Under the pieces are notes generated by a model. It searched no databases and was not told the origin of the DNA. It was given only the letters and a program-made list of their open reading frames with translations. This document shows, piece by piece, positions 546-45,549 of a stretch of DNA of 64,000 bases. How positions within the stretch are numbered: position 1 is the first letter of the stretch; each line of letters opens with the position of its first letter. The stretch is from Ostreococcus lucimarinus (Eukaryota), in NCBI GenBank assembly GCA_000092065.1, contig CP000584.1; one strand, given 5' to 3'. The position numbers were made by a program, and so were the translations under genes.

Positions 546-3500
546 ATGCGCGCGAATCGCACGCCGACGACGATGCGAAAACGCGCGTTCGGCGCCGAGG
601 TGACGAACTCTCCCGACGCGCGCGACGCGCGCGATGGAGGTCGAACGACGACGCCGAACGACGCGAAGACGCGCGCGATGTCGACGCCGAGAGGGACGGG
701 CGCGGTGACGCCGCGAGCGACGCTGACGCCGCGAGCGAGCGCGCTGCTGCGAGATCAGCGACAGTTGGCGTCGCCGCTTCGAGCGGCGATATCGCCGACG
801 CGACCGAGCTCGATGGTGAAGTCGAGCGTGAAGTCGAGCGAGAGCGCGACGAAGCGGGACGCGGCGCGGTTGCGCGAGCTGAATTCGATGCTGTTGAAAC
901 AGTTGTCGACGGCGCGGTCGGCGGCGGCGGAGGCGGAGAGCGCGAGGGAGACACTCGGGGAGGCGATGGCGCGGGAGGTGGCGAAGTCGAAGACGCTGGC
1001 GAAGGATGTGGAGGATAAGGCGGAGGCGCTGCGCGCGGCGGCGAAGCGAGCGAAGAAGGAAAGTAAGGATTCGGCGGAGGACGTCAAGGCGGAGGCGGAG
1101 CGATTGCGAACGTTGAACGCGAGGCTTATGAAGGAGGTTTCCATCGCGAGAGCGGTGGTGAAGGCTCGAGAGCACGAGGAGGCGACTTTGAAGGCAATCG
1201 CGGGGAAATCGGACGAGCGCGCCAACGCGCTCGAGGCTGAGATTGACGCCAAGCAACGGACGCTCGAAAGAGTTCAACTCGCGCTAGTTTCGGCGACAGA
1301 GCGAGCTGCGGATAGCTTGCGAGCAAATATGAAGGTGGAGAAGCTCGCCGAGACGAACGCGGTGTTGATGGGCGAGTTGGCTGCGTTGCGCGAATCCGCG
1401 GCGAGCGATTCCCAGGCGCTGCGCGCGCAAATCGCCGCCAAATCGGATGCCTTGATCGAGGCCAAGGCCGATCTCGCGGCCGCGGAGGACGAGGTCAATG
1501 CGCTGAGCGGCGCGAAATCCGACGTTGATAACCTTCGTTCTCTGAACGCGACGCTGATGCAGCAAATAAAGTCTCTTCGTTTCAAGGCTGACGAGGCGCT
1601 CGACGTCTCTCGCGCGCTCGAGGGCAAGGAACGCGAATTGGCCAAGGTGTGCGATGATCTGAAGGTTGCTGAAGACGCCAAGAGCGCGGCTGAGGACGAC
1701 GTCATGAAGTTGCGACAACTCAACGTGACGTTGCTTCAACAAATCTCCGCGCTTAAGGAGAATTCAGAGGTGGACGGAGCGGCGCTCGAAGCCAAGCAGT
1801 CGGAACTCGAGGCGGCGCAAATGGCGCTCGAACTCGTCGAAGAGGAACAAGAGCGCACGCAGAACGACGTCACGAAGCTTCGCGAATTGAACACCGTCAT
1901 CATGTCTCAAGTCAAAACGCTGAAGAAGTCGTCCTTGGATGATCGAGCAGCGTTCAAGGCGGACATGGATGCCAAGAATGCCGAGTTGTCGCGCGCGCGT
2001 GTCGAACTCGCGCGACTCGAACAGTCCAACGGCACGTCCGAAAGTGCTCTCGAAAAGGCTCGCATGAGACAAGCGGCGTTGGACGGCGAAGTCACGACTT
2101 TGAAAAAGATTGCTGAAGAGAACATGGCGACGAACGCGCATCTCACCGGCCAAATCGAAGCAAAACAGCTCGAACTCGCCGATGTCAAGGAATCTCTCGC
2201 GACGGCCGAGGCCAAGGCTGCGAAACTCGAAGCGGCAGAATATGACGTATCCAAGCTTCGCGAGCTGAACTCTGTCCTCATCGCGCAAGTGAAGACGTTG
2301 CGATCCGTCGAAGCGGAGAATGCGTCTCTCACCGCGGCCTTGCGCTCGCGCTCAGCTGAGCTCGAAAAAGCGCAGCTTCAACTCGCTGCCGCCGAGCGTG
2401 CCAAGGCTACAGGTGAAAAGGTTTCGGAAAGTGAAATCGCCAACTTGCGCGAGCTCAACACGCGCATCATCCAGCGCATGGGCGAGGTAAAGGAGGAGCA
2501 GGAAAAGAAGTTCCAACAACTCATCGACACGAAGACGCTTGAGCTTGCGAGTGTCAAGGCGGAGCTGGCAGAGGCGACGAAGGAGCTCGCCATCGGTCGC
2601 AAAGATGCGATGGCGCTCGAAAAATCGCTCGAAAAGTTGAGAACGATGAATGCAGAGTTGAACGGGTCGATCAAGGCGTTGGAAGCGGAGATTGAGGGCG
2701 AGAAGAAAGCGACGCTTGAGATGCGCCAGGCGATTCTCGACGCGCAGGCAGAGTGCGCTAGTCTCAAAGGGCGTTTGTCGGCGAAAGACGACGAACTCGA
2801 ATCTGCATGGTCTGCGCTTATGTGTGTGAACGCCGATTTGAAACACGCTTTGCACGACGCCACGGGTATGCGTGCTCTGGCGGAGAAGCGCCACGGAGAG
2901 CTCGAAGAGGCGAACGTCAACGTCGATCGCTTGCGTGAGCTGAATCACATGATGATTGAACGTCTGCACAACGCCAAGAAGGCTGCGCTCGAAGCGGAGG
3001 CATTGAACGCTGAATTTGCCGCCGCGCGTACTCAAGCCGAAGTTACGGTTCGTTCAGAAGAGGCGAAGGTTGCCGCGCTTGAACAAAAGCTCAAGGAGAA
3101 GGACGAGGAGTACGCGACGACGACGCTCGCGCTGCGCGCCGAGATGGAATCCGGAAACTCAGCCTCCGCGCAACGTTTGGCCAATCTCCAAGCGCAAATG
3201 CATTCCCAGACCCACTCGCTTGAGCGCCAACTCGAGTACGCCAACTTGGACCTGCAAAAGGTTCAACGATCGGAGGCGGCGCACATTGAAGACCAACGGC
3301 GAAGCGCCGAAGAAATCGAATCTCTCGTCGCGCAACTCGAGCTCACGGAGAGCGACGCGAAGAAGGACGCCAACGCGATGAACAAACATATCTTCGCCCT
3401 CCAATCCAAGGTAGCCGCGCACGAAGCATCCAATAAAGCCTTGACGAAGAAGTTGAACTCGTCCAAAGCTGAGATCAAAGCGCTCGAGCAAAAGCTCGCC

Positions 3501-4400
3501 GACGCGCAAAGCACGTCGAGCAAGAGATGGACTGATTTGGCTGCGGCATCGCGAGATTTACAAGAAGCGTTTACAGCCAACAAAGTTAAAGATACCATCA
3601 TTGCAACCATGCGCACAGAACTCAAGGAGCTCACGAACACGGCTGAGTACTTCACCCGACTCGCGCGAGAGCACGGCGAAGAGGCGAAAGACTTCAGCGT
3701 CAAGTTATCGCAAGCGGAGGGTCAAGTCGTCTCGCAAGAGAAACGAATCGGACACCTCTGCGCGTCGTTGGAAGAAACCGAGATCGCGCGAAACGAGTTG
3801 TCCCAGAAGGTTGTCGCGCTCGAGCGCAAGGGTGGCGTCGCAGAGATGACCATTCGCGCCGCTGCTGAGCACCTGTATAAAGCGAACGAACGCGCGCGGT
3901 CTTTGGAGCACCAACTCAAATCGGAACGCGCTGATTTTGAGCGAACGCAAGCGGCGTTGACTGAAACGCTGAACGCTGCCGAACGTTCTATGGAAGCCAA
4001 CATGCAAATCATTTGCGACCTCGAAGCCAAGTACCAAGAAACTTTGCAGCTCTTACTCGTCGAGCGCGAGCACAGTGCCGAAGTGCGCGACGAGATGCGC
4101 AAGGAACTTCAATTCGTCAACGAAGAGCTCGACGCCACGTCTGCGGATCTCGAAATCATGATTGAACGGAATAACTCTGGCATCTTGCTCAAAGTCGCGG
4201 ACAACGCGATGTGCAAGCTTGTGTTCTCCGCCGCGCCAAAGATTTCTGCGCGCGGCGTCAAAGCCGTCATTCGTCTCGGCATGCTCGGCGGTATCGCCGC
4301 GTTGATTGGTCAAACCGTGCGTCAACTCAAGACTAAGGTGGTCGACAAAGCCACCTCGCAAACGCCGCGCGCGTCTTTCCGCTTCGCCTTCCGAGGTTGA
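546..4400 (+). CDS. Long coiled-coil protein (1284 aa) with nine periodic [KR]LRELN heptad-type repeats and a single C-terminal transmembrane helix (tail-anchored architecture)
   Basis: One uninterrupted ORF. It has a repeated ~70-90 aa module, each copy containing K/R-L-R-E-L-N-x-x-[LIM] (KLRELNSML, RLRTLNARL, NLRSLNATL, KLRQLNVTL, KLRELNTVI, KLRELNSVL, NLRELNTRI, KLRTMNAEL, RLRELNHMM). Composition is Ala/Glu/Lys/Leu-rich. The C-terminal hydrophobic segment GVKAVIRLGMLGGIAALIGQTV is followed by a short basic tail. The start could be Met at 546 or Met at 573. Confidence 0.6.
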   Translation: MRANRTPTTMRKRAFGAEVTNSPDARDARDGGRTTTPNDAKTRAMSTPRGTGAVTPRATLTPRASALLRDQRQLASPLRAAISPTRPSSMVKSSVKSSESATKRDAARLRELNSMLLKQLSTARSAAAEAESARETLGEAMAREVAKSKTLAKDVEDKAEALRAAAKRAKKESKDSAEDVKAEAERLRTLNARLMKEVSIARAVVKAREHEEATLKAIAGKSDERANALEAEIDAKQRTLERVQLALVSATERAADSLRANMKVEKLAETNAVLMGELAALRESAASDSQALRAQIAAKSDALIEAKADLAAAEDEVNALSGAKSDVDNLRSLNATLMQQIKSLRFKADEALDVSRALEGKERELAKVCDDLKVAEDAKSAAEDDVMKLRQLNVTLLQQISALKENSEVDGAALEAKQSELEAAQMALELVEEEQERTQNDVTKLRELNTVIMSQVKTLKKSSLDDRAAFKADMDAKNAELSRARVELARLEQSNGTSESALEKARMRQAALDGEVTTLKKIAEENMATNAHLTGQIEAKQLELADVKESLATAEAKAAKLEAAEYDVSKLRELNSVLIAQVKTLRSVEAENASLTAALRSRSAELEKAQLQLAAAERAKATGEKVSESEIANLRELNTRIIQRMGEVKEEQEKKFQQLIDTKTLELASVKAELAEATKELAIGRKDAMALEKSLEKLRTMNAELNGSIKALEAEIEGEKKATLEMRQAILDAQAECASLKGRLSAKDDELESAWSALMCVNADLKHALHDATGMRALAEKRHGELEEANVNVDRLRELNHMMIERLHNAKKAALEAEALNAEFAAARTQAEVTVRSEEAKVAALEQKLKEKDEEYATTTLALRAEMESGNSASAQRLANLQAQMHSQTHSLERQLEYANLDLQKVQRSEAAHIEDQRRSAEEIESLVAQLELTESDAKKDANAMNKHIFALQSKVAAHEASNKALTKKLNSSKAEIKALEQKLADAQSTSSKRWTDLAAASRDLQEAFTANKVKDTIIATMRTELKELTNTAEYFTRLAREHGEEAKDFSVKLSQAEGQVVSQEKRIGHLCASLEETEIARNELSQKVVALERKGGVAEMTIRAAAEHLYKANERARSLEHQLKSERADFERTQAALTETLNAAERSMEANMQIICDLEAKYQETLQLLLVEREHSAEVRDEMRKELQFVNEELDATSADLEIMIERNNSGILLKVADNAMCKLVFSAAPKISARGVKAVIRLGMLGGIAALIGQTVRQLKTKVVDKATSQTPRASFRFAFRG

Positions 4401-9182: not shown

Positions 9183-10079
9183 TCACTGTATCGCGCGATA
9201 CAAAGTGATTTCTTGTTGTTTGAAGTACCGCCTGTCCCACTCGTCCACGAGAACGAGGTTGAGATAATACTTGACGCTGAACCGATTGTTTACGTTTTTG
9301 TACGTCGGTGTCAAATCGTACGGCGACAAAAACAGCCGCACCGGAATCGACTCTCCTCGCACGGGCGCCCCGTCCATGACTTCGTACTTTGCAATCGTCT
9401 CGCTTTCGTTGTGCGCGCTCGCTCCGCCCTCCGTGCTCTCCCGTCGCCGAATCTCAAGCTCCATGTGTTTGATTTTTATCTTCACCAACAAAAAGTAAAT
9501 CTTCCCAACGACGACGTCTTTCAACGAATACTTCGCCCTGGCGTACTCAAACTCGATGTGCAAACAATCCTCGATCCCAACCTCCATTCGAATCGAATTA
9601 TTCATCTCTGGCACCGCGGGCACGGGATTTTGCACCCAGAACTTGAACTCTTGCGCGACGCCGCTCGCGTACGACCGACTCACGACGACGCGCAGAAAAT
9701 ATCTCAACCGCACGTTTATCCCGTGGTAACTCTCGTGCTGCATCTCGACGTGTTTAAACTCAAATCCCAAGCTCTTCGGCGCGCTCAGTTCTCCCGGCGG
9801 TTCGAGGTCTCGCGTCGACGCCAAAAAATCGACGACGGATCTATCGCCGTACCGTTCAATCTGTCCGATCAACTCCACGCGCACGCCGCGGTGTTCAAAC
9901 TTTTTGCCGGGTATCGGCGCGACGTGCACCTTGCCCACGATCGTCTGTCCCGTGGAGAACAGCGGGAGGTGCTCGTGCGCGGTGCCTTGCTCGTTTTTCA
10001 CGCTCACCATCGGTTGGGCGTCCCCGGCGTCGTGCGTGAGGTCGACGGTGCACACCTTGCCGAAACCGAGGAACGACAT
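9183..10079 (-). CDS. VPS26: Vacuolar protein sorting-associated protein 26 (retromer subunit)
   Basis: It is 298 aa with full-length similarity to VPS26 (MSFLGFGK...; the HVAPIPGKKFEHRGVRVELIGQIE region; the arrestin-like fold signature IEFEYARAKYSLKDVVVGKIYFLLVKIKIKHMELEIRRRE). Confidence 0.9.
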   Translation of the reverse strand: MSFLGFGKVCTVDLTHDAGDAQPMVSVKNEQGTAHEHLPLFSTGQTIVGKVHVAPIPGKKFEHRGVRVELIGQIERYGDRSVVDFLASTRDLEPPGELSAPKSLGFEFKHVEMQHESYHGINVRLRYFLRVVVSRSYASGVAQEFKFWVQNPVPAVPEMNNSIRMEVGIEDCLHIEFEYARAKYSLKDVVVGKIYFLLVKIKIKHMELEIRRRESTEGGASAHNESETIAKYEVMDGAPVRGESIPVRLFLSPYDLTPTYKNVNNRFSVKYYLNLVLVDEWDRRYFKQQEITLYRAIQ

Positions 10080-10274: not shown

Positions 10275-11453
10275 TCACTTGCGCCCGTTTGAATCGCGGG
10301 ATTTCTTCTTGGCGGCTTTGGCGGCTTCTTTTTCCATGGCGCGGCGTTGCGCGCGCGGCAGCTTGGCGTACTCGGCTTCGGCGGCTTTGCGCTTGTTGTC
10401 GGCTTCGAGCTCCTCGGGCGTCGGCACGGGAGGCGTCGAGGACGCGATCCAAAGCTGAGAAACCCACTTTTCGTGACCTTCTTTCGCGGGCGTGGCGGTG
10501 TGCAGGGTTCGGGCGTCCGGCATGCACGCGGCGGAGCTCGGGAAGAAGACCAACGCCTTGCCCTTCTTCGGCGCGACTTCGATGCCCAGGTGCTCGAAAC
10601 GCGTCTCACCACCCTCGTCGACGTCGTTCAGGTACACCAAAATAGTCGCGCGTCGTTGATACCCCTTATCCGCGGCGACAGCGATCGGAAAGCCGTCTTC
10701 GTGCGCCTTGAAATACTCGCCGCCAGAGTAGTGCGCCACCTGCGGCAACTCAAACGACCACTTGCCTTCGCCCGCCTCGGGCGCTCGGAACGCATCCGCA
10801 TCCTTACTCAACCCCTCCACCGCGGGCAACAAGTACTCCGCGCGGCTCAAAATCGCCTTCTTCGTCGCGTGATTCTCCAACCCGTGCGAATTCAGCGCCA
10901 CCGTCCTCGACGTTCGAATGTTTTCGTTCGCCGCGCCGCCGATGGCGCTCACCTTCAACCCTCCGCTCGCCTCCGCGCTCGCCGTCAACATATCGCACTC
11001 GTTCGCGCTCAAAAAGTCATCCACCGTGAAAACGGGCGGGTCGATGTTTAACACGCGCAGCCCTGGCATGTCGTTCGTGCGCACGCCCATGAATTCAAAC
11101 GACAGAAATCCCGTAAACGACGTTCGCCACTCCTCCGGGGCGTCCCTGAGCAGCACGCCGCCCTCGAGCAATTGTTCGGGAAGAATCTTCGACAGCGTCG
11201 TGCGCTCGTGCGCCGGCACGAACCGAGGCTTTTCTTCGCTCGGTTCCGCCGCGCCGTCGGCGTCGGCGCGGCGCAGAACGCGCGCGCGACGGGGGGTTCC
11301 GACGCGAAGTTGACCTAGACCCTGAATGGCGTTCGAGCGATGCGCGCGCGACGCGGCGGTGACGCGCGCGACGGCGTGACGCGGCGAGTGCGTCGCGCTC
11401 GTCGTGCGCATCGCGCCGCGGGTGAACGGCGAGGCTCGGGCGATGGACGCCAT
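10275..11453 (-). CDS. 2-oxoglutarate/Fe(II)-dependent oxygenase, prolyl 4-hydroxylase-like
   Basis: P4H catalytic core motifs are present: YFKAHEDGF (HxD-like), VYLNDVDEGGETRFEH, KGKALVFFP and a C-terminal ...HTATPAKEGHEKWVSQLWI. There is an N-terminal Ser/Arg/Ala-rich presequence and a Lys-rich tail. Confidence 0.7.
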   Translation of the reverse strand: MASIARASPFTRGAMRTTSATHSPRHAVARVTAASRAHRSNAIQGLGQLRVGTPRRARVLRRADADGAAEPSEEKPRFVPAHERTTLSKILPEQLLEGGVLLRDAPEEWRTSFTGFLSFEFMGVRTNDMPGLRVLNIDPPVFTVDDFLSANECDMLTASAEASGGLKVSAIGGAANENIRTSRTVALNSHGLENHATKKAILSRAEYLLPAVEGLSKDADAFRAPEAGEGKWSFELPQVAHYSGGEYFKAHEDGFPIAVAADKGYQRRATILVYLNDVDEGGETRFEHLGIEVAPKKGKALVFFPSSAACMPDARTLHTATPAKEGHEKWVSQLWIASSTPPVPTPEELEADNKRKAAEAEYAKLPRAQRRAMEKEAAKAAKKKSRDSNGRK

Positions 11454-11550: not shown

Positions 11551-12861
11551 CTACATGCGAGCTAAGACAGTTTTGCCGAACGCGATTCCGAGGAAGGTGG
11601 CGACGGTGTACCCGAGAACGCCTACGAGCATGGCGGGGACGACGAGGGATTTCCAATTTTTCGCCGAAGCCATCGCGGCGGCTGTGGTGGGACCGCCGAC
11701 GCACGCGTTGGAGGCTAGTAAAGCGTTCGCTTTGTCGAATCTGAGCGCTTTGCCGACGGCGAGGAGGAATGCTAAGTGAATGGCGACCTGTAGGCAGGAG
11801 AAGACGAATAAGGACGGCGCAGTGGTGAGCATGTGGGTGATGGATCCCGACGCGCCGACGGCGACGAAGAAGGCTTGCATGACGAGCGTCGCGAGCGCCT
11901 CGCCCGAGCCCGCGAGCGCTCCGAGACGTCTAGGTATCGCCGTCGCGAGAACGACCGTTATCAACGTGATGATCGGGATGTCCATGCCACGCAGATTGAG
12001 CGCGGCGGAGATGAGCTTCGCCGCGTATCCGACGGAGGCCGCCACGGCGAGCGCGTACGACGCGCGCAACGCGCTGAAAGGCTCACCCGCGCCCTCGCCC
12101 TCAACGAGCGCGACCGTGTCGAGCGCGACGTCGCCATCGCCCTGGCTCTCGCGCGCGTCGACGTCTCCGCCGTCGCGCGTTTTCGGCATCACGCCCTTCG
12201 CCAGCGCGAACAATCCCATAAAGTACAACGCGTTCATCAAATTATCCGCCGCCAAACCCGCCGCCATGATATTCGGTGTCATCTCCAACGCGTTCGCCAC
12301 GGCGACGAAATTCACCGCCCCCCCGATGTGTCGCGCCATCAACGCGCTCGCCATCTTCCACCCCTCCGCTCCTAGCGCCGTCATCGGCACCGCCGCGAAC
12401 GCCCCCAGCGTCCCGAGCGTCGTCCCGAGCGCGCCGACGACGAAACACGGCAACAAGCGCGCCGATCCGCGCAGCACTCGTCGCACGTCCGCCGTGAACA
12501 GCAACATGGGCACCGCGAGCGGTAACAAGAACCCATTAATCATCCCGTACGTCGGCGCGTCCGTCGGCATGATTCCCGCGTTCGCGAGCGCGAGCGCCGC
12601 GAGCGTGCTCACCAGCGGCGCGCCGCCCGCGTTCGCTCCCCACGGGCGCTTCTCCGCCCAAAGCCCGAACGCACCGCACGCGAGCACCGCGGTCCAAACA
12701 CCGAGCGCGTCGGTCGGCGCGATGAGCGCGCGCGTCGCGGCGTCGCGCGTTCGGCGCGTTCGGGACGCACCGCCGTCCCGAACGCGCGACTTCGCGCGGC
12801 GTTCGCGCGCCGGCGCGGGCGCGCGCGCGCGCGCGACCGACGCGAGCGCGTCGCGCGACAT
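11551..12861 (-). CDS. Multi-pass membrane protein, DUF819-like
   Basis: It has about 10 predicted TM helices. It has the motif NFVAVANALEMTPNIMAAGLAADNLMNALYFMGLFALA, which I recall as characteristic of the plant/algal/bacterial DUF819 family. The N-terminus is an Arg/Ala-rich presequence. Confidence 0.5.
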   Translation of the reverse strand: MSRDALASVARARAPAPARERRAKSRVRDGGASRTRRTRDAATRALIAPTDALGVWTAVLACGAFGLWAEKRPWGANAGGAPLVSTLAALALANAGIMPTDAPTYGMINGFLLPLAVPMLLFTADVRRVLRGSARLLPCFVVGALGTTLGTLGAFAAVPMTALGAEGWKMASALMARHIGGAVNFVAVANALEMTPNIMAAGLAADNLMNALYFMGLFALAKGVMPKTRDGGDVDARESQGDGDVALDTVALVEGEGAGEPFSALRASYALAVAASVGYAAKLISAALNLRGMDIPIITLITVVLATAIPRRLGALAGSGEALATLVMQAFFVAVGASGSITHMLTTAPSLFVFSCLQVAIHLAFLLAVGKALRFDKANALLASNACVGGPTTAAAMASAKNWKSLVVPAMLVGVLGYTVATFLGIAFGKTVLARM

Positions 12862-12990
12862 GCGCGCGATCGACGCGCGCGCGTTCGGGCGCCGGCGCGC
12901 GCGTCGCGCGCGAGGAGAGCCGCGAGAGCGTCACTTTAACGCGCGCGGTGCGGTGCCGCCGCGACGCGAAGCGAACCGACGCCGCGCTCG

Positions 12991-13188
12991 ATGTCGTCGC
13001 TCGCGCAGCCGGCGGCGTCGCAGGCGAAGGTGCTCGTCGGCGTGCTGGCGGGGTGCGCGATCGCGGCGGTACCGTTCGCGTTCAAGACGGTTCGACAGAG
13101 GGAACAGGTGGTGGCGGAGGCGCGGGACGGGGCGTACGACGCGCGGGACGACGCTCGCAACGCGCGACTGAGCGCGAAAAAGCGTTAG
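12991..13188 (+). CDS. Possible small single-pass membrane protein (65 aa)
   Basis: A short ORF sits in the 420-bp gap between two minus-strand genes. It has a hydrophobic core LVGVLAGCAIAAVPFAF and an AT-rich stretch immediately downstream. There is no homology support. Confidence 0.2.
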   Translation: MSSLAQPAASQAKVLVGVLAGCAIAAVPFAFKTVRQREQVVAEARDGAYDARDDARNARLSAKKR

Positions 13189-13282
13189 ATTATCGTTGTA
13201 GTGATATGTGATCTGTGTGTGTGTTCGTTCACGCGCGCGTGGGCTGGCTAGTGTGTGGGTGGTACTACAGAACGGGGCTGCG

Positions 13283-15379
13283 CTACGCGACGGGCTCGTC
13301 GGCTACGCGCGGCGGCGCGGCGGCGGCTCGCGCGCTCGGCACGAGTCTCGGTAACGCGTCCTTGATGTGCTGCAAACTGCGCACGAGAAGCTCTTCAGAT
13401 TCTGGCACGGAGTCGAGGCTGTGCACGGTGCGGCGATCGTTCACAGGGTCGGTGTGGACGACCAATTGAAACGTCGGCGACAGGAGAATTTCGCGCTCGT
13501 CGTAAAAGTTGACTTGAATCGTTTTGTTGGATAAACGCCACATGACGCCCTTGGAGGTGCGGAGCCAGCTCTTTACGTATGGTGGCATCGTTTGTGGATC
13601 CCGCGCGCGCGACTCGCCGTCGTGCGAAAGACCGCCGATGGACTGGTACACCGAGCCGCGATGTTTGGTGTCGGAGAGATACTCGCGGAAATGCCCGGCG
13701 AGCAAAACCTTCTTCGCCACGTCACGACCATACTTTCGCGCCTCTGCGGGATAGACAAGCATGCGACCGAAATCGCTCCCTAGTGCTCGCGCCTTCTCAG
13801 GATCGATCACGGTGTCTTCGATCGGGGGATCGGGGTTTTGCGAGTGCGGCGACGCCATGTACACGATGGGCGAGTCGGCGGTCCCCTCCATAAACATCAT
13901 TCTTGTATCGTCGTTGAACGCCACGCCAATCGTGCCATCGCTCAGTTTATACCCCATGCCGTACTTCGATGTGAAATCGACCCACGAATCGACCCATAGA
14001 TGCGGGAAGTAGCTCGCCATCGCGCGAGATTCGTCTTCAGAATCCGTGCGCAATTGCAAACTGTCGAGCTTGTCGCCCAGAAGCGACGTGGGGTGGCCGG
14101 TCTCGATATCACCGTCGGTCGAAGCGCTCGCGTACTCCGGTTCGCGACACCGATTCGTCGCGAGCAGTCCATTGGAGGCGCTTTCCACCGCTACGACGTC
14201 TCTCTCCATCGCCCTCGCGTGCGCGCCCGCCGTGAGCCTATTCTGATCTAAACTTTGCAGCGGCGAACGCAATTGCTGCGTCGCCGCGGACGGATTCGTC
14301 GCCTTCGATGGCGCTTCGGCACAGATTGTGTCACCGTCTCGAGCGTCGAGTCTGCGCGATTTCGTCACCGGCTTTTTCGGTGACGATACCGTCGTCGTCT
14401 TTGATCGTCGTTCGACGTACGGTGCCGGCTTTTCGTCAGCTAATTTCCAGTCCTCCGCACCGAGCTTCATGAACGGGTGCGCCGCTATCTGTTGCAATGT
14501 CGGTCGCTTCTCGGGCTCGGCGCTCAGAGCGGCGCGAATCAAATCCTTGGTAGAGTCCGCGATCGGAGGGTCATCTGGTATGTCGTACTCGTTGGCTCGA
14601 ATGCGTTTGTACGTCAACTTGACATCCTTGGTTTGAAACGGCGGCGAGCCGAAGAGCAACGTGTACAGAATTACCCCCAACGACCACGTATCGACTTCGT
14701 AGGAGTGACCGGGACCTTCTTTACCCTTGAGAACTTCTGGTGCGATGTAATTCGGTGTCCCGCAAATCGTCCTTCGCCGCTCGTCGTCGTGATCCATCGC
14801 GCACGCCAAACCGAAATCTCCAATCTTCACTCGCTTCGCCGCGCCGAGCTTATTCAACTCGGCGTCCGTTCCAGGTCCGCCGCCCTCCGCTTTGATCTCC
14901 TCCAACCCTTCTTTGGTCAAAAACAGATTTCCGAGCTTCAAGTCTCTGTGAATCACTCGCATCGCGTGCAGGTGCGCCGTCGCCGACACCGCCTCTCGCA
15001 TGTAACACGCCGCCGCCATCTCTCTCATGGCACCGCGAGACTTTACGATATCCGCCAACGTCCTGTTCGAACACATCTCCATCAAGATGTACACGTGATT
15101 ATCGTCCTCGAAACAACGCTCAAACCGCACCACTTGATCGCACGAGACGCTCTTGTGAATCCGAATCTCCGTCACCATCTTCTTCCTCGCCCGCGGTTTC
15201 TCCAGCGTCGACTTCGCCACCACCTTACACGCGAACGACCTCCCCGTCGCCGCTTCCTGCACCGCAAACACCACCGCGAACCCTCCTTTCCCTAACGCGC
15301 GTCCTCGAATGTACCGCCGCGCCCGCTTCGCGCCGTCGCCGCCGTCGTAATACTCCGTGATGACGCGCGGACACCTCAC
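13283..15379 (-). CDS. PLK: Polo-like kinase (Ser/Thr kinase domain plus C-terminal polo-box domain)
   Basis: Kinase subdomains are present (GKGGFAVVF, HRDLKLGNLFL, DFGLA, GTPNYIAPE). The C-terminus carries two polo-box signatures (WVDFTSKYGMGYKLSDGTIGVAFNDDTRMMF; SWLRTSKGVMWRLSNKTIQVNFYDEREILLS). Confidence 0.9.
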   Translation of the reverse strand: MRCPRVITEYYDGGDGAKRARRYIRGRALGKGGFAVVFAVQEAATGRSFACKVVAKSTLEKPRARKKMVTEIRIHKSVSCDQVVRFERCFEDDNHVYILMEMCSNRTLADIVKSRGAMREMAAACYMREAVSATAHLHAMRVIHRDLKLGNLFLTKEGLEEIKAEGGGPGTDAELNKLGAAKRVKIGDFGLACAMDHDDERRRTICGTPNYIAPEVLKGKEGPGHSYEVDTWSLGVILYTLLFGSPPFQTKDVKLTYKRIRANEYDIPDDPPIADSTKDLIRAALSAEPEKRPTLQQIAAHPFMKLGAEDWKLADEKPAPYVERRSKTTTVSSPKKPVTKSRRLDARDGDTICAEAPSKATNPSAATQQLRSPLQSLDQNRLTAGAHARAMERDVVAVESASNGLLATNRCREPEYASASTDGDIETGHPTSLLGDKLDSLQLRTDSEDESRAMASYFPHLWVDSWVDFTSKYGMGYKLSDGTIGVAFNDDTRMMFMEGTADSPIVYMASPHSQNPDPPIEDTVIDPEKARALGSDFGRMLVYPAEARKYGRDVAKKVLLAGHFREYLSDTKHRGSVYQSIGGLSHDGESRARDPQTMPPYVKSWLRTSKGVMWRLSNKTIQVNFYDEREILLSPTFQLVVHTDPVNDRRTVHSLDSVPESEELLVRSLQHIKDALPRLVPSARAAAAPPRVADEPVA

Positions 15380-15932
15380 CTCCTTCGCTCGATCTTGCCT
15401 GCGTCGCCGTCGCCGCGTCTCCGACCGTCAGTCGGCGTTCGCGCTTACCACCGCGTTTCTCGATCCTCACCGCGCGCCCTCGTCGCCCGCGCCGCCGTCG
15501 ATTCGCCCGCGCGCGTCGTCATCGCGAATTTCAAATTTCAAATCGCGTCCCGTCGCACCTCGGCGTTTTCTTCATCGGCGCGTCCTCGCGCGCGAGCGCC
15601 GCGGACGGCGTCGCGTCGTTCGCGCGGCGATTTCTCGGCGCGATGTTTTCATCGTTCAGCAGCGACATCGCGCGCGCGCGCGTCTCGCGCGTCGCGTTAA
15701 GACGTACATCCGGGGACGCGCCGACGGTCGCCGGCGTCGGTCCGCGCTCGACGCGCGTTGACTTTTGTTTTCGCGCGACGCGACGGCTCGGACGTCGCGG
15801 GCGCGACGACGACGCGGGAAAAAAGTGACGGTCGCGACGGTGGCGCGCGGTCGCGCGGTGCGCTCGCGATCCGACGCGCGCGACGCGCGACGGCGCGTCG
15901 TCGCTCGCGGTTTCTTCGCGCGGAACGCGAAC

Positions 15933-23212: not shown

Positions 23213-24421
23213 ATGCAAATTGCGATTGAAATCGCGTCGTCTTCCGCGTCCGACGCCGCGCCGCACTCGCCGACGGCCGTCATGCCCCCCGGCGACGCGC
23301 GCGACGGCGCGTCCGCGCTCGACGTCGCCGCGCGCGCGGCGTCGCGCGCGGAAGACGACGCGTGGGACGCGCACCACGACGCCCTGCTCGCGTGGTCCGT
23401 CGCGGACGGCCGCGACGGCGCGTGCAACGCGCCCTGGCGCGCGACGCACGCGGGACTCAACATCGGCGCGTGGCTGCAGAACCAGCGCGCGAAGCTAAGG
23501 GCGAAAAAGATGCCGAGGGAGCGGGCGACGAGGCTGGACGCGCTGACGGCGGCGGGACGATTGTGGATCGACGCGCCGGGACGGAAGGGATGGAACGAAC
23601 AGCTCGAGAAGCTCGCGGCGTGGGCGGAAAAGACGAACGGAGGGGTTGATTATAACGCGCCGGTCGGGACGACGCACGAGGGGGCGAAGATCGGGGCGTG
23701 GTTGGCGACGCAGCGAACGCGGCGAAGAGACGGCGAGAACGCGCGGCGACCGCTCAAGCCGGAGCAAGCGGCGGCGCTGGACGCGCTCGTCCTGAGGGGG
23801 GTGCTGAGGTGCGAGAAAGCGGATCCTTGGCCGAGGAAGTGGGCGCTGGTGCTGAAGTGGGGGGAAGAGCGCGCGAACGGGGAGCACTTTAACGTGCCGT
23901 ACGATTACAAGGATGGCGACGAACGCGTGGGGGTGTGGTTGAACACGCAGCGACAGCGGTTCCGCGGAGGGACGACGAAGAATTTGCCGCTCACGCCTTG
24001 GCAGACAGAGCAAATGCAAGCGATGATCGACGCCGGTAAGCTCTGGGTGCACGCCCCGGACGACGTGTGGGAGAAGAAGTTCGCGCTGCTCTTGCGATGG
24101 GGCAAAGAGAAGACGCGAGGCGTCAACTACAACGTGCCGCAGGGCGAGGAGTACGAGGGCGTCAACCTCGGCTCGTGGTTGAGCACGCAGCGCGCTCGAC
24201 TGTTGCACGAGACTCTCGGGAAAAACAGACCGCTCAGCGATGACGAACGTCGAAAGTTGCAGAAACTCATCGACGACGGCAAGCTGCGACCGTCGACGCC
24301 GCGAGGCAAGAACGCGGCGAAGGGACAGGGCAAGCGCGCGCCGCGAGGCAATCTCGACGACGTCGACGCCGCGCTCAACGTCGACCTGCCGCACACGTCG
24401 AAGAGAGGACGTAAAACGTAA
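23213..24421 (+). CDS. Protein composed of four helicase-associated (HA) domain repeats
   Basis: There are four ~70-aa repeats with the pattern W..(H/N)..L..W......G...N.P.....EG..IG.WL..QR........L...(Q/R)...L..L.... One example is WEKKFALLLRWGKEKTRGVNYNVPQGEEYEGVNLGSWLSTQRARL. The C-terminus is basic. Confidence 0.6.
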   Translation: MQIAIEIASSSASDAAPHSPTAVMPPGDARDGASALDVAARAASRAEDDAWDAHHDALLAWSVADGRDGACNAPWRATHAGLNIGAWLQNQRAKLRAKKMPRERATRLDALTAAGRLWIDAPGRKGWNEQLEKLAAWAEKTNGGVDYNAPVGTTHEGAKIGAWLATQRTRRRDGENARRPLKPEQAAALDALVLRGVLRCEKADPWPRKWALVLKWGEERANGEHFNVPYDYKDGDERVGVWLNTQRQRFRGGTTKNLPLTPWQTEQMQAMIDAGKLWVHAPDDVWEKKFALLLRWGKEKTRGVNYNVPQGEEYEGVNLGSWLSTQRARLLHETLGKNRPLSDDERRKLQKLIDDGKLRPSTPRGKNAAKGQGKRAPRGNLDDVDAALNVDLPHTSKRGRKT

Positions 24422-26682: not shown

Positions 26683-29391
26683 ATGTCCGACGCCGAGCCC
26701 TCGGCTCGGTCCGGACCGAGCGATGTCCGTCACGCGCGCAACCGCAGCCTCAGCGCGCCCCTGCGCATCGACATAACCGACGCCGCGATCGACCCACCGG
26801 GACAAAGCAACCGACCGGACGCGAGAAACGCCGCCGACGCGCCCGGTTCGCGCTCTCCCCTGCGCCACGCGTCGTCGTCGAGCAAGCCCGAAGCGCCCGC
26901 GATCGCGCTGCCGCGGCAGCGCGACGCCGTGCGACACTTCGCGATGGATCTCGGTGGGTCCCTGGTGAAGCTCGTGTACTTTAGCCCGAGCGGGACGGAC
27001 GCGAGCGGACGCGCGGTGGCGGGAGGACGATTGCACTTTCGAAAGTTTCCCTCGGCGCATTTGAACGATTGCATGGACTTTATAGAGTTCAAAAAATTGC
27101 ACGTGGGAGGGTCGGGCACGACGGAGGGCGACGGCGAGGATGGCGGCGTGACGGTGAAGGCGACGGGGGGCGGCGCGTACAAGTTTTCAAAGACGTTTCA
27201 GGATCGGTTGGGGATCACGCTGCAGAAGGAGGATGAGATGGCGTGCGCGGTGGCGGGGGCGAATTTTTTGTTGGAGACGATTCGCGACGAGGCGTTTACG
27301 TATACTGATGATGAGAAGGCATTTATATCAAAAGACGCGTTGACGCGTGAATCGTTGTTTCCGTACCTGTTGGTGAACATCGGGAGCGGGGTGAGCATCA
27401 TCAAGGTTGATAAGGATGGGCACGAGCGCGTGAGTGGTAGTAATATAGGTGGGGGGACGTTTTGGGGATTGTGCCGGTTGTTGACCGGGCTCAAGGATTA
27501 CGATGAAATGTTAAAGTTGAGCGCGCAGGCGGACAATGCGAAGGTGGACATGCTCGTCGGGGATATTTATGGCGGCCGCGACTACCCCAACATCGGTCTG
27601 TCTAGCGAGACTATCGCGAGTTCTTTCGGGCGAGTCGTCATGGACGAAGGAAGCTTGGAAGATTACTCGAAAGCCGACATAACGCTTTCTCTGTTGCGTA
27701 TGATCTCGTACAACATCGCGCACATTTCAACCATGAACGCCGTCAAATACGGGCTCAAGCGCATCTTTTTTGGAGGTTACTTCATCCGAAACCACGCATA
27801 CACGATGAACACAATTTCGTTCGCCGTCGATTTCTGGTCTAAAGGATCATTGAAAGCGAGTTTCCTGCGTCACGAGGGCTTCCTCGGCGCCCTAGGGGCA
27901 TTTCTGCAAGACGTCGAGGCGCAGAAAAATCTTAGCAATGCCGCGCAGCAAGGGACGTGGATCGAGAAGTTTATCAAGTGTTCGGTGCCGCCTACAGGCA
28001 TGGATCGCAAACGATCGGCCAGAACGTCGCACTCATCAAAAGGTAGTCTGACGACGCCAGCGACGCCGCCCAGGGCACGCCGCGACAGTGAAGAAGAAAC
28101 GATTGGCGAAGCGATGCGAAAAGTAAGCTTCGACGGTGCCTTGAGGACGTACTCAAACGACAACTTGGCCAATGTCCGCGTGCCGCGCGTCGCTGGAGAT
28201 GTCGCGTCATCGGAAGAGCACTCCTCAGGAGAAGAAACGCCGTCGGATCGGAACGATCCCACGCAGTTGCTCAACTCTGCAGGCTTACAAGTTGGTGTTT
28301 TGCACCTCGAGCCGACGTTGGAAACTTTTCCATTGCTTCGCGAAGGGCGCGATTACGACCCAAACATCTTTGACATGCTCACCAATACCACTGAACGAGA
28401 TTACTGGTTGGACACGCTGGAACGCTTGCAATCTGGGCTCGTGGAGCGCGCGCTAGTGAGCGAACCATCGAGCTCTGACGCAAAAGAACGCGCAGAAAAT
28501 TTTGACAACGTGTTTAAATCGCACTTGTCGCGACTTCGCGAAGAGCCGGCGGCGTACGGACGCATCGGTCTCGCGGATTTGTTCGAGATGCGCGAAGAGT
28601 GTTTGAGATTCTTTCGCTTTAACGACGTGTACGAAGACGTAAAAAAGCAAGAGAATGAGTCCGCGCTCTTGGTTCTTCCCGACTTGCTCGCTGAAATTGA
28701 TAGCTTGAACGACGACGAACGGCTGTTAGCCATCGTCGAGGGCGTTTTGGCGGGTAACATTTTCGATTGGGGATCCCAAGGCACGCTCGATTTGTATCGC
28801 AACGGTACGATTTTAGAAATCTATCGCAACGCGAGAAGCACGGTGAACAGGCCGTGGGCCATCGATGACTACGACGCTCTGCGCGATCGATTGAACGCTC
28901 CGAATGCGAAGCAGTACCGCAAAGCGTTGCTCTTTTGCGATAATTCCGGCGCCGACATCATCTTGGGCATGCTTCCGTTCGCTCGCGAGCTTTTGAAGCG
29001 AGGCACGTCCGTCGTTCTCGTCGCCAACTCCCTCCCCGCCATCAACGACATCACCGCGACCGAGCTTACGGGGATATTACAAGCCACCAAGTCTCTCGAC
29101 TCGCAGCTCGAAATCGCCATCGATTCCGGCGCGCTCTCCGTCGTGAGCTCGGGCTCTGGTTCGCCCTGCTTGGACTTCCGCCGTCTCTCCAACGAAGCGT
29201 GCGTCGCCGCTCGAGACGCCGATCTCATCGTCCTCGAAGGCATGGGACGCGCCATTCACACCAACTATCGCGCCCAATTTTCGTGCGACACCATCAAGCT
29301 CGCCATGATTAAAAACCAGCGTCTCGCCGAGAAGCTCTTCGGTCCGCGCGGCGAGATCTGGGACTGCGTCGTTCGCTTCGAAGCCGCGTAG
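26683..29391 (+). CDS. PANK: Pantothenate kinase (eukaryotic type II) fused to C-terminal DUF89 (damage-control phosphatase) domain, plant PANK2-type
   Basis: The PanK core is FAMDLGGSLVKLVYF, GGGAYKF and LLVNIGSGVSIIKVDKDGHERVSGSNIGGGTFWGLCRLLTG. The C-terminal DUF89 region is LLFCDNSGADIILGMLPFARELLKRGTSVVLVANSLPAINDIT ... SSGSGSPCLDFRRLS. There is an N-terminal low-complexity extension of ~87 aa. Confidence 0.85.
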   Translation: MSDAEPSARSGPSDVRHARNRSLSAPLRIDITDAAIDPPGQSNRPDARNAADAPGSRSPLRHASSSSKPEAPAIALPRQRDAVRHFAMDLGGSLVKLVYFSPSGTDASGRAVAGGRLHFRKFPSAHLNDCMDFIEFKKLHVGGSGTTEGDGEDGGVTVKATGGGAYKFSKTFQDRLGITLQKEDEMACAVAGANFLLETIRDEAFTYTDDEKAFISKDALTRESLFPYLLVNIGSGVSIIKVDKDGHERVSGSNIGGGTFWGLCRLLTGLKDYDEMLKLSAQADNAKVDMLVGDIYGGRDYPNIGLSSETIASSFGRVVMDEGSLEDYSKADITLSLLRMISYNIAHISTMNAVKYGLKRIFFGGYFIRNHAYTMNTISFAVDFWSKGSLKASFLRHEGFLGALGAFLQDVEAQKNLSNAAQQGTWIEKFIKCSVPPTGMDRKRSARTSHSSKGSLTTPATPPRARRDSEEETIGEAMRKVSFDGALRTYSNDNLANVRVPRVAGDVASSEEHSSGEETPSDRNDPTQLLNSAGLQVGVLHLEPTLETFPLLREGRDYDPNIFDMLTNTTERDYWLDTLERLQSGLVERALVSEPSSSDAKERAENFDNVFKSHLSRLREEPAAYGRIGLADLFEMREECLRFFRFNDVYEDVKKQENESALLVLPDLLAEIDSLNDDERLLAIVEGVLAGNIFDWGSQGTLDLYRNGTILEIYRNARSTVNRPWAIDDYDALRDRLNAPNAKQYRKALLFCDNSGADIILGMLPFARELLKRGTSVVLVANSLPAINDITATELTGILQATKSLDSQLEIAIDSGALSVVSSGSGSPCLDFRRLSNEACVAARDADLIVLEGMGRAIHTNYRAQFSCDTIKLAMIKNQRLAEKLFGPRGEIWDCVVRFEAA

Positions 29392-29551: not shown

Positions 29552-32500
29552 ATGGCCGCGTCGAGCGAGCGCATCGCGCTCCTCGGCGCGCGCGCGCGCG
29601 AATCGGCGTCGACGAGCGACGATTCAACGCGAGATCGACCGTCAACACTAAAGGTGTCTCGATGGCGAAAAATCGCCCTCGGCGCGCTCGCGTGCGGCGC
29701 GCTCGTCGCGGTCGCGACGCGCGCGCGCGGACGCGGACTCGATGCGCCCGGTCTCGGTCGCGGATGGCTGTCGACGCGCGACGGCGCGATGGACGACGAC
29801 GCGGGAACGACGGGCGGGGCGGGACGCGCGTTCGAAGACGCCGCCGACGGGGGGTTGATCGACTCGCAATACGAGGACGCGGACGTCCCGCGCGATGCGA
29901 GGTACGGTGATATGGGCGTGATCGAGCGCGAGGCCGCGCGGAGGACGCGACGGGGGCGTCGCGGGCGAGGTCGAGGAGGAGAAGCCGAGGGCGCGCTGGG
30001 ACACACGTACATTCGCGTGTACGAAGACGGAAACGACGCGCGCGGGGGAGGCGCGTCGACGCGGAACGGCGGCGCGCAGAGATATAGGACGGTTACGGTA
30101 CCGATACCCACGCGAGTGCGAGTGCCGATGGAACCGGCGAGCGTTGGACCGGCGCCGCGAGCGCAGAGACGAGGACACTCGCCGCTGCCGCCCATCGAAA
30201 CCACGGGTGGTGACTTGTTCGGACTTGGAACCGGCTACTCGTATTACATCGATCCCGCCGATTGGGCGTATCCACCAACGGTAGTCGTAGAGTTGCCCGA
30301 GGGCGTCGAGTTCGCGGACGCCGAGTTGTTCGCGCGCGGCGCGAGCGAGCATCCGCCGAACGAAGCCGGGCTCGTCATGCGAGTGAACGGACAGCGAACG
30401 AGCCCGAATACCTTGGTGAAAAATTTAGATGTGCTCGAAATTGACGCACAAGCTCACAACGTTCTGAACGATGTACGCACGGTGGTATTGCGATACACGT
30501 GGCGCGATCCCGGCGCGGGCGGCGCGCGCAAGCAACGACGGGGTTTGATTAGACTGAACACCAACGGAGATGCGAGGACGGGTGAGACGCAGCCGCATAG
30601 ATGGCCAATCGTCGAGCATCCGGACACTCCATCGGTGCCAGCGCCGAATGTGCCAGCGCCGACGCCAGGGACATATGTGCCAGCGCCGAATGTGCCAGCG
30701 CCGACGCCAGGGACATATGTGCCAGCGCCGGATGTGCCAGCGCCGGATGTGCCAGCGCCGGATGTGCCAGTTCCGGCGCAAGCACCGAATGTACCAGCAC
30801 CGAATGTGCCAGCGCCGACGCCGGCTTATTTTGCTCCGCCTATTGCGTGGCCACCACCACCTGCTCCGGCGATCGTGAGCATTGAGGAGGAAGATATTTT
30901 AGCCGCGAACGAATTGGTTATTCCTGTTCCACCCAATATGTTGATCGGTATACCCACTGATGGACATTTCACGGTGAGTGGCTTGCCGGACTTCGATTCC
31001 GACAACACGCCGCACCGACAAATGATCATGTTTAGCTTCGGTTGGACAGGGAATAACGGCGCCGAGGCTGAGCTCGGGGCTAGCGACAGCCAATTCGTAG
31101 ACCCGCCAGTTATGGACACGTCATCGACGCCGCCGGATTGGATTAGTATTCGAGTGAACGGCCAGTTACATGCGCTGCCGTACGCCGCTCAAAATGGTGA
31201 TCGCATCGTGCTGCGTGTTCGTGCGCCCAGTGAGCCAAACTCGAGTAGAATGGCACAGATGCTCATCGGAGATTTGCATCCGAAAGTTGTTCTCACTACG
31301 TTGGACATTGCCGCGCCGCCATCTCTCGAGGAGACTATGGACGCGATGGAACCGCCGGCGCCACCCATGGTGTCACCACCGCCGCCGCGAGAGTTTACAT
31401 CGCCGCCGCCGCCGCGTGTTCTCACCGCCGCGCCGCCGTCGCCTCCGATGCCACCATCACCGATTAGTGTAGTTGCTGACGACGATGCTTCGTACTACGA
31501 CACGGGCACGCCGAGTTCCACACCGGCACCAGCGGCCGATGACGCGTCATACTACGACACGGGCGCGCCAACGCCGACGGATGACGACGCGTCGTATTAC
31601 GACACTAGTACGCCGAGTGCGACGCCAACGCCAACGCCAACGCCAACGCCGACGGATGACGACGCGTCGTACTACGACACTAGTACGCCGACGACGCCAA
31701 CGCCAACGCCAGCACCGACGGATGACGACGCGTCGTATTACGATACTAGTACGCCGACGACGCCAACGCCAACGCCAGCACCGACGGATGACGACGCGTC
31801 GTATTACGATACTAGTACGCCGACGACGCCAACGCCAACGCCAGCACCGACGGATGACGACGCGTCGACGGACGACACGGCTTCGTCAAGTCCGACACCA
31901 GCGCCGACGGACGACACGGCTTCGCCGAGTCTGACGCCGGCGCCGACGGACGACACGGCTTCGTCAAGTCCGACGCCGGCGCCGACGGACGACACGGCTT
32001 CGCCGAGTCCGACGCCAGCACCGCAGCAGTCGCCGGTCGACGCCTTTGAACCGACGCCGGGTGCGCCGACGGAGAGCCTCGACGACGCCCCGCCAGAAAG
32101 TGACGACTCATACGCTGACTTCGCGCCGGCGTCTGCGTACCCGTCGAGCGTGAACGGTACGTCTGGCTACCCGTCGAGCGTGAACACCACGACGCCGGAC
32201 GCGACATCGAGCGCGAGCGAGCCAGCTCTGCCAACGACCCCCCCGAGTCCGCCGCCGCCGCCGAGTCCGCCGCAGCCGCCGAGCCCGTCGCCGCCGCCGC
32301 TTCCACCGGCGCCTCCTGGAATCGTTAACGTGCACAACGTCACCATGCAAGCAGGTTCGAAAGCGGTGATGTTCCATCCACCAAAAACAGTTGAGACGCT
32401 GCAATCGCCGAATCAACCACTGACGCTGCACTTTATGGAGAATGGCAACGACGCTCAACTCGCGAGTTCTGGATTGCCGTTGTGGACCGAAGTCTACGTC

Positions 32501-45500: not shown

Positions 45501-45549
45501 GACGATCGACGACATGCGCCCGTCGCGCGTGTGCGCGCCCGCGACGCAC
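39562..45549 (-). CDS. Receptor-like type-I membrane protein: signal peptide, ~20 Cys-rich ephrin-receptor-like/TNFR-type repeats, Pro-rich stalk, TM, cytoplasmic TPR array and uncharacterised C-terminal domain (1995 aa)
   Basis: The signal peptide is LTLATLLALSATALITPASA. Repeated C.xC.AG.Y....C..C..G... units follow (for example CSPCLAGTYAATVGSTSCLPCPAGYKCES). Then come PPPPNPPPSPPPSPPPPSPPSLPP, a TM helix WTVGGIALSVYGIILWIISRRIW, about 10 TPR motifs (AHFNIGNAHFLAGDAASARVSYLAALDREPNYFKALYNLA...) and a ~600-aa C-terminal region with no family I recognise. Confidence 0.7.
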   Translation of the reverse strand: MRRGRAHARRAHVVDRRRRVETKPSTRCEMPKEPRPRFARVRRALTLATLLALSATALITPASAQTCAAGQFIDDGACADCAAGTSGDGTATSCADCGVGNYATGANAVCQWDVATDCAGNAIDEANWVTALQEAYQASHGLDGSKIAATCAYAEGGLSFFKEQAATCVIPLPDSGTMTLTCAPSVSPTGTIGMVCETAGQADGFVSGCGEVTNNGAGLDNEGTTVTCVFEGKQSSCSQCPAGTECELLKTSIAVPCPAGEYNGAAGGSCAPCPAGYKCASAATITPQPCLAGTSSAQGSLECSTCDAGTFAASAASATCTSCTAGYKCESPGTVTPEICAAGSAAAEGSSTCSPCLAGTYAATVGSTSCLPCPAGYKCESTAERITPSACPAGSYAEEGSTSCELCDIGTYQPSSASGSCLTCPVGKSCPTEGLTAYQECGAGTYSGWALKDVAVAFARPYNDTDPLRQPTAAASGAGCVTCPEGYSCADGASAPALCPIGTQSYAGAQACSNCTAGSACPTPLPGDQTQCQAGTFSLGRAAACTECDPGRYCTDTTQDIQLNCALGFYSYGGAVSACTRCEVGKQCPATDGSGNADCAPGTFSEGGQTHCSFCPPGRYCNDTSSATAQYDCAKGTYSLGSVSACSSCPAGTFGLTTAAVSDEDCTKCPAGMYSTATAASDSSTCVLCPVDTSCPNAGTVTPTPCASGSGTFGDVGQTSCGLAPPPPNPPPSPPPSPPPPSPPSLPPLNVTINVPEISLRLQGNVEGWTETDATAFKTGIASALSDGTTANDVEILGIKQGSVIVVFTINSLAMLPTSYGGDWNQTYLSQAVTKISDAVTASTLNVGAVPLSLPSVDCAAGSYVSSSASAAVRECSLCNPGSYSTTTNAAQCLTCGAGTATGFRGSTGCPTCVPGTVAPLTGALECALCPRGTIQPASGMTSCVQCQDNFFAGSFGSVACVACPSGFVSGAPAWVGETPRMRADGVLSVEVQEAIDGVRCIPDGTYELPPLPPPPLGVREADKTSWTVGGIALSVYGIILWIISRRIWAREKLTLQYAENESFVDAITPLMENTAASRGTIKEFEDEDLRYAIDCFRRGGIEEAEEIYARMAERNPGNADIMHGLAICRAFAGDTEYAHAFAQRSASLTLTAQRQITLGNIFLAQGKLAKASTVYAMAIRRDPVSAVAHFNIGNAHFLAGDAASARVSYLAALDREPNYFKALYNLAIVIDSIGSVGEAKEWMKRAVDCRPNDSRATYALALLYVKLGQWKKAEYHFEQTLNLDAKHAPSQVKLGNLAFRRGDFQRSGANYLNALEVDPGNVEALTNLAMLDWCKGLLSACNEQLRLALTINPSYYPALYNLTLTRLSQGRIEDCMKYYQRTRACADSSALSKTQMFNLSMALAELDELDDADVPEEFTPNTVEHQLMKIALAKIQLAATTDDGKSSKPATTKQTLNPIVATADVEPQPPKMKRSNTTRVYESLVFISDAMKFPERLEACALDDTCVILYEHDVNSAMLCRKLIAKAKERLSTASGLQPVERVAVIAPTFPGGVRLGDDVIMDKRTVMQTGDIALFLKGLNEILGLQQWRGKRLDFLTLDYSLEENVSLLRMIKYEHQFECEVSCSDKMESSETYDLTAEQLKAMQGAAGGAWACLRYFVAGSLEDWAALPQAPPRHKVIEASGGGLLALKESEEEKVKVSWRTAAKMAMSIAPKAQTIVPMAKANIEPPPAVLAPAEVDVFGIRRTKKHQPTSRTKSHITHVDIEVMTHMPVAKFKSHATQLFFCKEIAVELGVDVNRVRVARTDDIADTVTVRITERRDGSNEGGPLEILVNKLQNAIKDGYFIIDEAFGEVDVMGVFWPPADIPEDDDGEEAVSVVSEVSSGGETRASHDENATPHLSEFTDFDVSDTVGRKTAFTVASASLEPTLSARSLEPTSVRQTPLTSTIPAQDFVEIEYNDADGSRESRARWDFDRNIANLRNERTGIWDTGDLR

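Follow-up and report, generated by a model that had tools for sequence, protein, structure and literature searches.

The window analysed here, a stretch of 64,000 nucleotides of contig CP000584.1 from the alga Ostreococcus lucimarinus (assembly GCA_000092065.1), carries on its minus strand a gene for a polo-like kinase (PLK), in which a Ser/Thr protein kinase domain is followed by a polo-box domain (PBD). An earlier note, made from the DNA letters, had placed at 13283-15379 a canonical PLK with two polo boxes in a green-lineage-like genome; the kinase domain and both boxes were recovered there, with scores well beyond chance, but "canonical" says too much, given that the protein lacks the pair of residues that binds phosphate in human PLK1. 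The features of the gene are listed below, with residues numbered along the open reading frame (ORF) of the earlier note.

13283..15379, minus strand: the ORF of the earlier note, 698 codons, uninterrupted, inside exon 2
13283..15398, minus strand: exon 2, coding for all of the PLK from '..QDRAKEVRCPRV' onwards, with the stop codon TAG at 13283..13285
15399..15558, minus strand: intron of 160 nucleotides, GTGCGA...CTGAC...CGCAG (GT..AG), whose junction yields the NCBI protein exactly
15559..15668, minus strand: exon 1, with the annotated start ATG at 15575 and a further in-frame ATG at 15668
14468..15310, minus strand: Ser/Thr protein kinase domain, ORF residues 24-304 (Pfam Pkinase, E 9.1e-64, 215.8 bits)
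15275..15292, minus strand: Gly-loop
within 15218..15232, minus strand: catalytic Lys52
14927..14950, minus strand: HRDLKLGN motif
14828..14917, minus strand: clade-specific kinase insert of 30 residues (TKEGLEEIKAEGGGPGTDAELNKLGAAKRV), located by alignment between 'GNLFL' and 'KIGDFG'
14810..14818, minus strand: DFG motif
14735..14779, minus strand: activation loop RRRTICGTPNYIAPE, with Thr204, aligned to human PLK1 'KKTLCGTPNYIAPE'
14240..14269, minus strand: linker motif RSPLQSLDQN, a possible D-box-like degron, conserved as 'RSPLQ(S/T/A)(L/I)D'
13340..14044, minus strand: PBD, ORF residues ~446-680, delimited with AlphaFold2, Foldseek and phmmer
13982..13999, minus strand: 'LWVDSW' with Trp462, the equivalent of human Trp414, just upstream of the polo box 1 core
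13886..13969, minus strand: polo box 1 core, residues 471-498 (Pfam, 39.2 bits when scanned alone)
13484..13501, minus strand: 'DEREIL', the site aligned by HMMER to the phosphate-binding pair in PLK1 PBD chains (human 'DHTKLI')
13400..13558, minus strand: polo box 2, residues 608-660 (Pfam, 48.1 bits when scanned alone)

The kinase domain is of the PLK type. In alignments of 16 and 65 sequences, Lys52, Glu71 of helix alphaC, His144-Arg145-Asp146, Asp188-Phe189-Gly190 and Ala213-Pro214-Glu215 were invariant, as was Thr204, the equivalent of human PLK1 Thr210. Compared with the sequences of the PDB, the domain was closest to human PLK1 (E 4e-73), followed by PLK3 (9.5e-67), PLK2 (3.5e-64) and PLK4 (2e-45), while non-PLK kinases such as CaMK1D, Aurora A and MARK lay far behind PLK1, at ~1e-42 to 1e-38.

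The C-terminus scored as a PBD by each of the approaches used. Over the whole ORF, the Pfam model POLO_box (PF00659) matched two stretches with an E value of 3.5e-23 (81.8 bits), and each box scanned alone exceeded the cut-off of the model (gathering score of 23); both fall within residues ~430-690, where the domain had been predicted. A phmmer search of the PDB with the C-terminal 254 residues retrieved the PLK1 PBD (E 1e-21) and then PLK2 and the yeast Cdc5. The full-length AlphaFold2 model, built on the 65-sequence alignment, was confident for the kinase domain and the PBD alike, and the C-terminus modelled alone reached a mean predicted local distance difference test score (pLDDT) of 84.6 and a predicted template modelling (TM) score of 0.81. 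When this predicted PBD was compared with the PDB using Foldseek, the top 50 matches were all PLK1 PBDs (E 7e-14, probability 1.00), with TM scores of 0.61-0.67 over ~230 columns. The domain follows the order polo-cap helix, polo box 1, linker helices, polo box 2 and C-terminal helix, with an insertion of ~25 residues in polo box 1 that was modelled with low confidence (pLDDT <50 at 519-533). The ~120 residues linking the kinase domain to the PBD were disordered in the model (pLDDT <50). This linker holds the RSPLQSLDQN motif, which Ostreococcus-type proteins and those closest to them keep as 'RSPLQ(S/T/A)(L/I)D' and which we take, judging by eye, to resemble the D-box of PLK1.

The ORF opens with a GTG codon and cannot be the whole coding sequence, because its first in-frame ATG would cost the protein the Gly-loop and the catalytic Lys. 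As the ORF has no usable ATG, the coding sequence must run upstream, through an intron, into a short first exon. The splice model was found by enumerating GT/AG combinations upstream of the ORF. The intron has a branch-like CTGAC site ~30 nucleotides ahead of the acceptor and an in-frame TGA at 15428..15430, and the 19 nucleotides that precede the GTG read 'QDRAKE' in translation; extended by the GTG codon, this becomes 'DRAKEV', comparable to the 'DRAREV' conserved in relatives. The spliced model of 710 residues, with a 17-nucleotide exon 1 starting at ATG 15575, is letter-for-letter ABO95722.1 / XP_001417429.1 / UniProt A4RVJ0. Thus, the gene is already known and has been in public annotation since the genome release, where the O. 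lucimarinus CCE9901 protein goes by "predicted protein" and "Serine/threonine-protein kinase", without a PLK name at NCBI. In O. tauri, model OUS49269.1 is interrupted by an intron at the corresponding codon ('...RRP R|VDRAREV').

The ATG at 15668, 93 nucleotides upstream of that at 15575, gives a protein of 741 residues, 31 more than the public model. Since this extension aligns with the first exon of O. tauri and has the motif 'NDENIAP', resembling the N-terminal 'QENVAP/RENVAP/KEN' of more distant PLK relatives, the annotated start likely lies too far downstream; ATG 15668 is probably the true start, leaving the public model 31 codons short at its N-terminus. Neither the 741-residue nor a 733-residue splice model had a database match, the database entries being the 710-residue model and an ORF call of 631 residues from an internal ATG. 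Downstream of the gene, the earlier remark on TGTAA poly(A) signals did not apply to the PLK, as this motif was absent from the ~290 nucleotides past its stop codon (12990..13282).

One departure from PLK1 lies in polo box 2. In human PLK1, His538 and Lys540 form ion pairs with the phosphothreonine (pThr) of the ligand and Trp414 selects Ser at position -1, and mutating both His538 and Lys540 nearly abolishes phosphopeptide binding (PMC12183085). In the HMMER alignment, His538 corresponds to Glu628 and Lys540 to Glu630 of the O. lucimarinus protein ('NFYDEREILLSP' vs human 'NFFQDHTKLILCP'), so that the phosphate-binding pair is absent. The equivalent of Trp414 is kept ('HLWVDSWVDF' vs human 'IFWVSKWVDY'), this residue being Trp in 62 of the 65 aligned PLKs; the equivalent of Leu490 is also kept, and Leu491/Lys492 are replaced by Ala/Gly. 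The change is not peculiar to this species: the 28 nearest relatives all show (Gly/Glu)-x-Glu in the His538/Lys540 columns, and the versions of the site within the clade are DERE, DGRE, DGSE, DESE and DGAE, with no basic substitute consistently conserved. Elsewhere, the site reads DHTK in Physarum, DKSK in oomycetes and D(H/K)TE in ciliate-type proteins, and the first position is mostly His or Lys in the other protist PLKs of the alignment. Because the His/Lys pair is absent, "canonical" is, on the sequence evidence, too strong a term for the O. lucimarinus PLK. The pair is nevertheless not family-defining, as judged from this alignment, in which many protist PLKs have Glu at the Lys540 position. 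With Glu/Glu in place of the pair, the protein probably docks otherwise than by the classical Ser-pThr pincer, and the O. lucimarinus PBD is a candidate, rather than an established, Ser-pThr reader.

A further trait accompanies the altered pair. The segment between 'GNLFL' and 'KIGDFG' has 27-65 residues in 29 of the 29 sequences of the green-algal-type clade vs 5-6 residues in the 36 other PLKs; within the clade, the motifs 'GL.E' and 'GPG.D..L' of the insert are conserved, and AlphaFold2 predicted it with pLDDT values around 87-90. Together, the altered pair and the kinase insert define a green-algal-type PLK clade and point to a possible change in its docking or regulation. A tentative extension of this idea, which we hold to be doubtful, is that the clade as a whole (Mamiellophyceae plus longer marine relatives, 29 sequences), having its pincer replaced and an insert near the active-site cleft, may find its targets without classical phospho-priming.

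The surroundings of the gene place it firmly in the alga. Three flanking ORFs are exact proteins of O. lucimarinus CCE9901 (XP_001417147.1, XP_001417435.1 and XP_001417436.1), on a contig that at ~931 kb is chromosome-size, and the GC content of the PLK gene agrees with that of the window. The neighbours that had been named alongside the PLK were all found, the DUF819 gene through its syntenic counterparts and the P4H-like gene as a 2OG-Fe(II) oxygenase:

9186..10079: Vps26
10278..11453: 2OG-Fe(II) oxygenase
11554..12861: membrane protein, whose syntenic counterparts have PF05684/DUF819
26683..29388: PanK/DUF89
50953..53307: AP-4 beta-like adaptin

The gene order, ABC2 transporter-TPR-Vps26-2OG-Fe(II)-DUF819-small ORF-PLK-enoyl reductase/ADH-DEAD_2 helicase-SpoU-SGT1, comprises more than 10 genes and is common to contigs bearing the O. 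tauri-type PLK and to those of a relative with a PLK of just 46% identity. The O. tauri-type PLK is here the representative P0004, whose 90% cluster includes the O. tauri proteins XP_022838693.1 / OUS49269.1; it owes its affiliation to this cluster, and that of the other relatives among P0002-P0029 is inferred from similarity, synteny and GC content. Environmental data contributed 147 sequences with at least 90% identity to the O. lucimarinus PLK. The exact O. lucimarinus genes on the flanks and the conserved gene order rule out both contamination and a recent horizontal transfer: the PLK gene has long occupied this part of the chromosome and was passed on vertically within the Mamiellophyceae.

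The small ORF of this order lies between the PLK and the DUF819-type gene and is convergent with the PLK. Clearly similar ORFs occupy the equivalent position on the O. tauri-type contig (9219-9404 of L004) and on that of a more distantly related form (8024-8224 of L006), the shared pattern being 'QPAASQ.RV..GV..G.AIAA.PF.FK...DDARNARL'. The small ORF has no Pfam match and is probably a genuine, conserved gene for a micro-protein. It is listed here with other ORFs of the window:

12991..13188, plus strand: the small ORF, 65 residues, with a single hydrophobic stretch
546..4397 and 29552..34141, both plus strand: ORFs of 1284 and 1530 residues, without a Pfam match at E <= 1e-5
23213..24418, plus strand: protein of 402 residues consisting of four HA (helicase-associated, PF03457) repeats, whose exact sequence was found in Logan and ENA assemblies only, with no NCBI protein record
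39565..45549, minus strand: ORF of 1995 residues with ephrin-receptor-like cysteine-rich repeats and a long TPR array
45789..46991, minus strand: protein of 401 residues matching Pfam PF01959, 3-dehydroquinate synthase II (E 4.7e-95), which we take to be an archaeal-type enzyme and presumably unusual in a eukaryotic alga
53480..55120, plus strand: PLAT/LH2 domain joined to a PP2C/SpoIIE-type phosphatase domain

These data led us to conclude, with a probability of about 0.92, that the gene is the single PLK1-type PLK of O. lucimarinus CCE9901, the orthologue of O. tauri Ot04g00800, vertically inherited within the Mamiellophyceae. Other origins and identities were weighed against this reading. 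That the contig is a non-green contaminant, an alternative raised in the earlier note, or that the PLK came by recent horizontal transfer, might be argued from the closest named full-length homologues outside the marine clade, which are oomycete PLKs (34-36% identity), and from the lack of PLK in land plants. Yet the exact O. lucimarinus genes on both flanks, the gene order shared with two relatives, the intron position common with O. tauri and the concordant GC content all speak against it, and Chlamydomonas also has a PLK (PMC4409525); a foreign source is thus very improbable. Less credible still is a PLK4/SAK-type kinase acting in centriole duplication rather than a PLK1-type mitotic kinase. 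PLK4 kinase domains do match, but ~28 orders of magnitude worse than PLK1 and also behind PLK2 and PLK3; moreover, the C-terminus is predicted to be a two-box PBD with the PLK1 fold over its whole length, and Ostreococcus has no flagellum. Equally slight is the chance that the gene has ceased to function or is decaying, heading for a loss like that of land plants. The missing in-frame ATG ahead of the kinase domain and the lost pincer residues could be read in this way, but the conserved upstream exon accounts for the former, and the 2.1 kb ORF is uninterrupted, with invariant catalytic residues and the many close environmental sequences mentioned above.

A variant of the conclusion, rather than an alternative to it, deserves more weight, although we hold it to be less likely than not: the same PLK may have changed the reading mode of its PBD, binding its targets in a phospho-independent manner or via other residues, possibly aided by the insert. 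The replacement of the pair throughout the clade, with no conserved basic residue in its stead, the need for these same two residues in human PLK1 (PMC12183085) and the fact that His or Lys is mostly kept at the first position in other protist PLKs are consistent with such a change. On the other hand, Trp414 and the surrounding strands are conserved, numerous ciliate-type PLKs likewise have Glu at the Lys540 position (DHTE/DKTE), implying that Lys is not universally required there, and in the folded protein the site might be reached by further basic residues.

Several points weigh against the identification of the gene as a PLK1-type kinase with the gene model given above. Its activity, timing, partners and localisation are all assigned by homology, and literature searches found no experimental work on the PLK of O. 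lucimarinus or of any green alga, nor on the function of Cre03.g190050, the Chlamydomonas gene. The absence of His538/Lys540, together with the 30-residue kinase insert, means that docking and regulation may differ from those of PLK1. As to the intron and the start codon, a search of metagenome contigs for the spliced transcript with a 26-mer spanning the exon1-exon2 junction gave zero matches; a junction 20-mer had six matches in these contigs, every one unrelated and only 20-21 nucleotides long, and no spliced transcript among them. The metagenome contig L001, which has the identical ORF, is colinear with the genome and stops inside the intron, and is therefore uninformative on splicing.

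By analogy with PLK1, Cdc5 and Polo (PMC12183085), we propose that the kinase would become active in G2/M once the Thr of its activation loop is phosphorylated, and that the activating kinase would probably be the single Aurora; only one Aurora orthologue is present in O. tauri (PMC4143559). The PBD would both restrain the kinase domain and dock the kinase on mitotic substrates or structures. At mitotic exit, the protein might be removed via degron-like motifs, namely '(K/D/Q)EN..P' at the N-terminus and 'RSPLQSLD' in the linker. For both motifs the likeness to a degron consensus was judged by eye, which makes them candidate APC/C degrons, of the D-box kind in the linker and of the KEN-box kind at the N-terminus. 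The presumed job of the protein would be in mitotic entry, spindle function and chromosome segregation, and cytokinesis rather than in basal-body functions, because Ostreococcus lacks a flagellum.

The practical value of the analysis is modest. It confirms that the window comes from O. lucimarinus, and it points to a public gene model that apparently begins 31 codons too late. It also draws attention to an algal PBD without the residue pair on which phospho-dependent docking hinges in the PLKs of animals and yeast, a loss relevant both to Ostreococcus as a minimal cell-cycle model and to how plants dispensed with PLK. If targets were indeed found without phospho-priming, this would represent a differently wired core mitotic kinase in a lineage whose land-plant relatives lost PLK.

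The retention of a PLK in a prasinophyte-grade alga, which had been put forward as worth confirming, is real but was already published. In the O. tauri kinome, Hindle et al. (2014, PMC4143559) count one PLK, Ot04g00800, under the name "PLK1, Polo-like kinase 1", and Cross & Umen (2015, PMC4409525) give PLK1 of Chlamydomonas as Cre03.g190050 and "n.a." for Arabidopsis. The loss from land plants, likewise asserted beforehand, agrees with the latter entry and with the statement that plants have no Plk1, which is absent from Physcomitrella and Arabidopsis (Yamada & Goshima 2017, PMC5371999). A PLK kept in chlorophytes and lost in land plants is therefore the picture already in print, and Chlorophyta-wide retention is taken here from that literature.

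A second group of longer PLKs, of 771-1037 residues (P0011-P0029 and P0340), was found on GC-rich marine contigs and in one MMETSP transcript, an example being that at 2001-4526 of L002 (GCA_977009805.1, CDRMZB010000417.1). These proteins have the kinase insert and the DGSE replacement of the pincer in common with the Ostreococcus-type PLKs.

Among known systems, the nearest is the PLK of O. tauri (Ot04g00800, PMC4143559; XP_022838693.1 / OUS49269.1), whose representative P0004 matches 97% of the ORF with 53% identity. Like that of O. lucimarinus, it has the kinase insert, the lost pincer residues (DGSE/DGTE), the intron at the same codon and the same flanking genes; unlike it, it has other sequences in the linker and in the polo box 1 insertion. 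In the 766-residue RefSeq model of O. tauri, the intron that OUS49269.1 splices out appears to be kept. For Chlamydomonas reinhardtii PLK1 (Cre03.g190050), the single polo-domain kinase of a chlorophyte, the comparison is by its listing in PMC4409525. With human PLK1 (kinase domain structures 2YAC and 2OU7; PBD structures 1UMW and 1Q4K), the O. lucimarinus protein shares the domain order, the catalytic residues, Thr210, Trp414, Leu490 and the predicted PBD fold, whereas it differs in having Glu/Glu for His538/Lys540 and Ala/Gly for Leu491/Lys492, a 30-residue insert before the DFG strand, the ~25-residue insertion in polo box 1 and another N-terminus.

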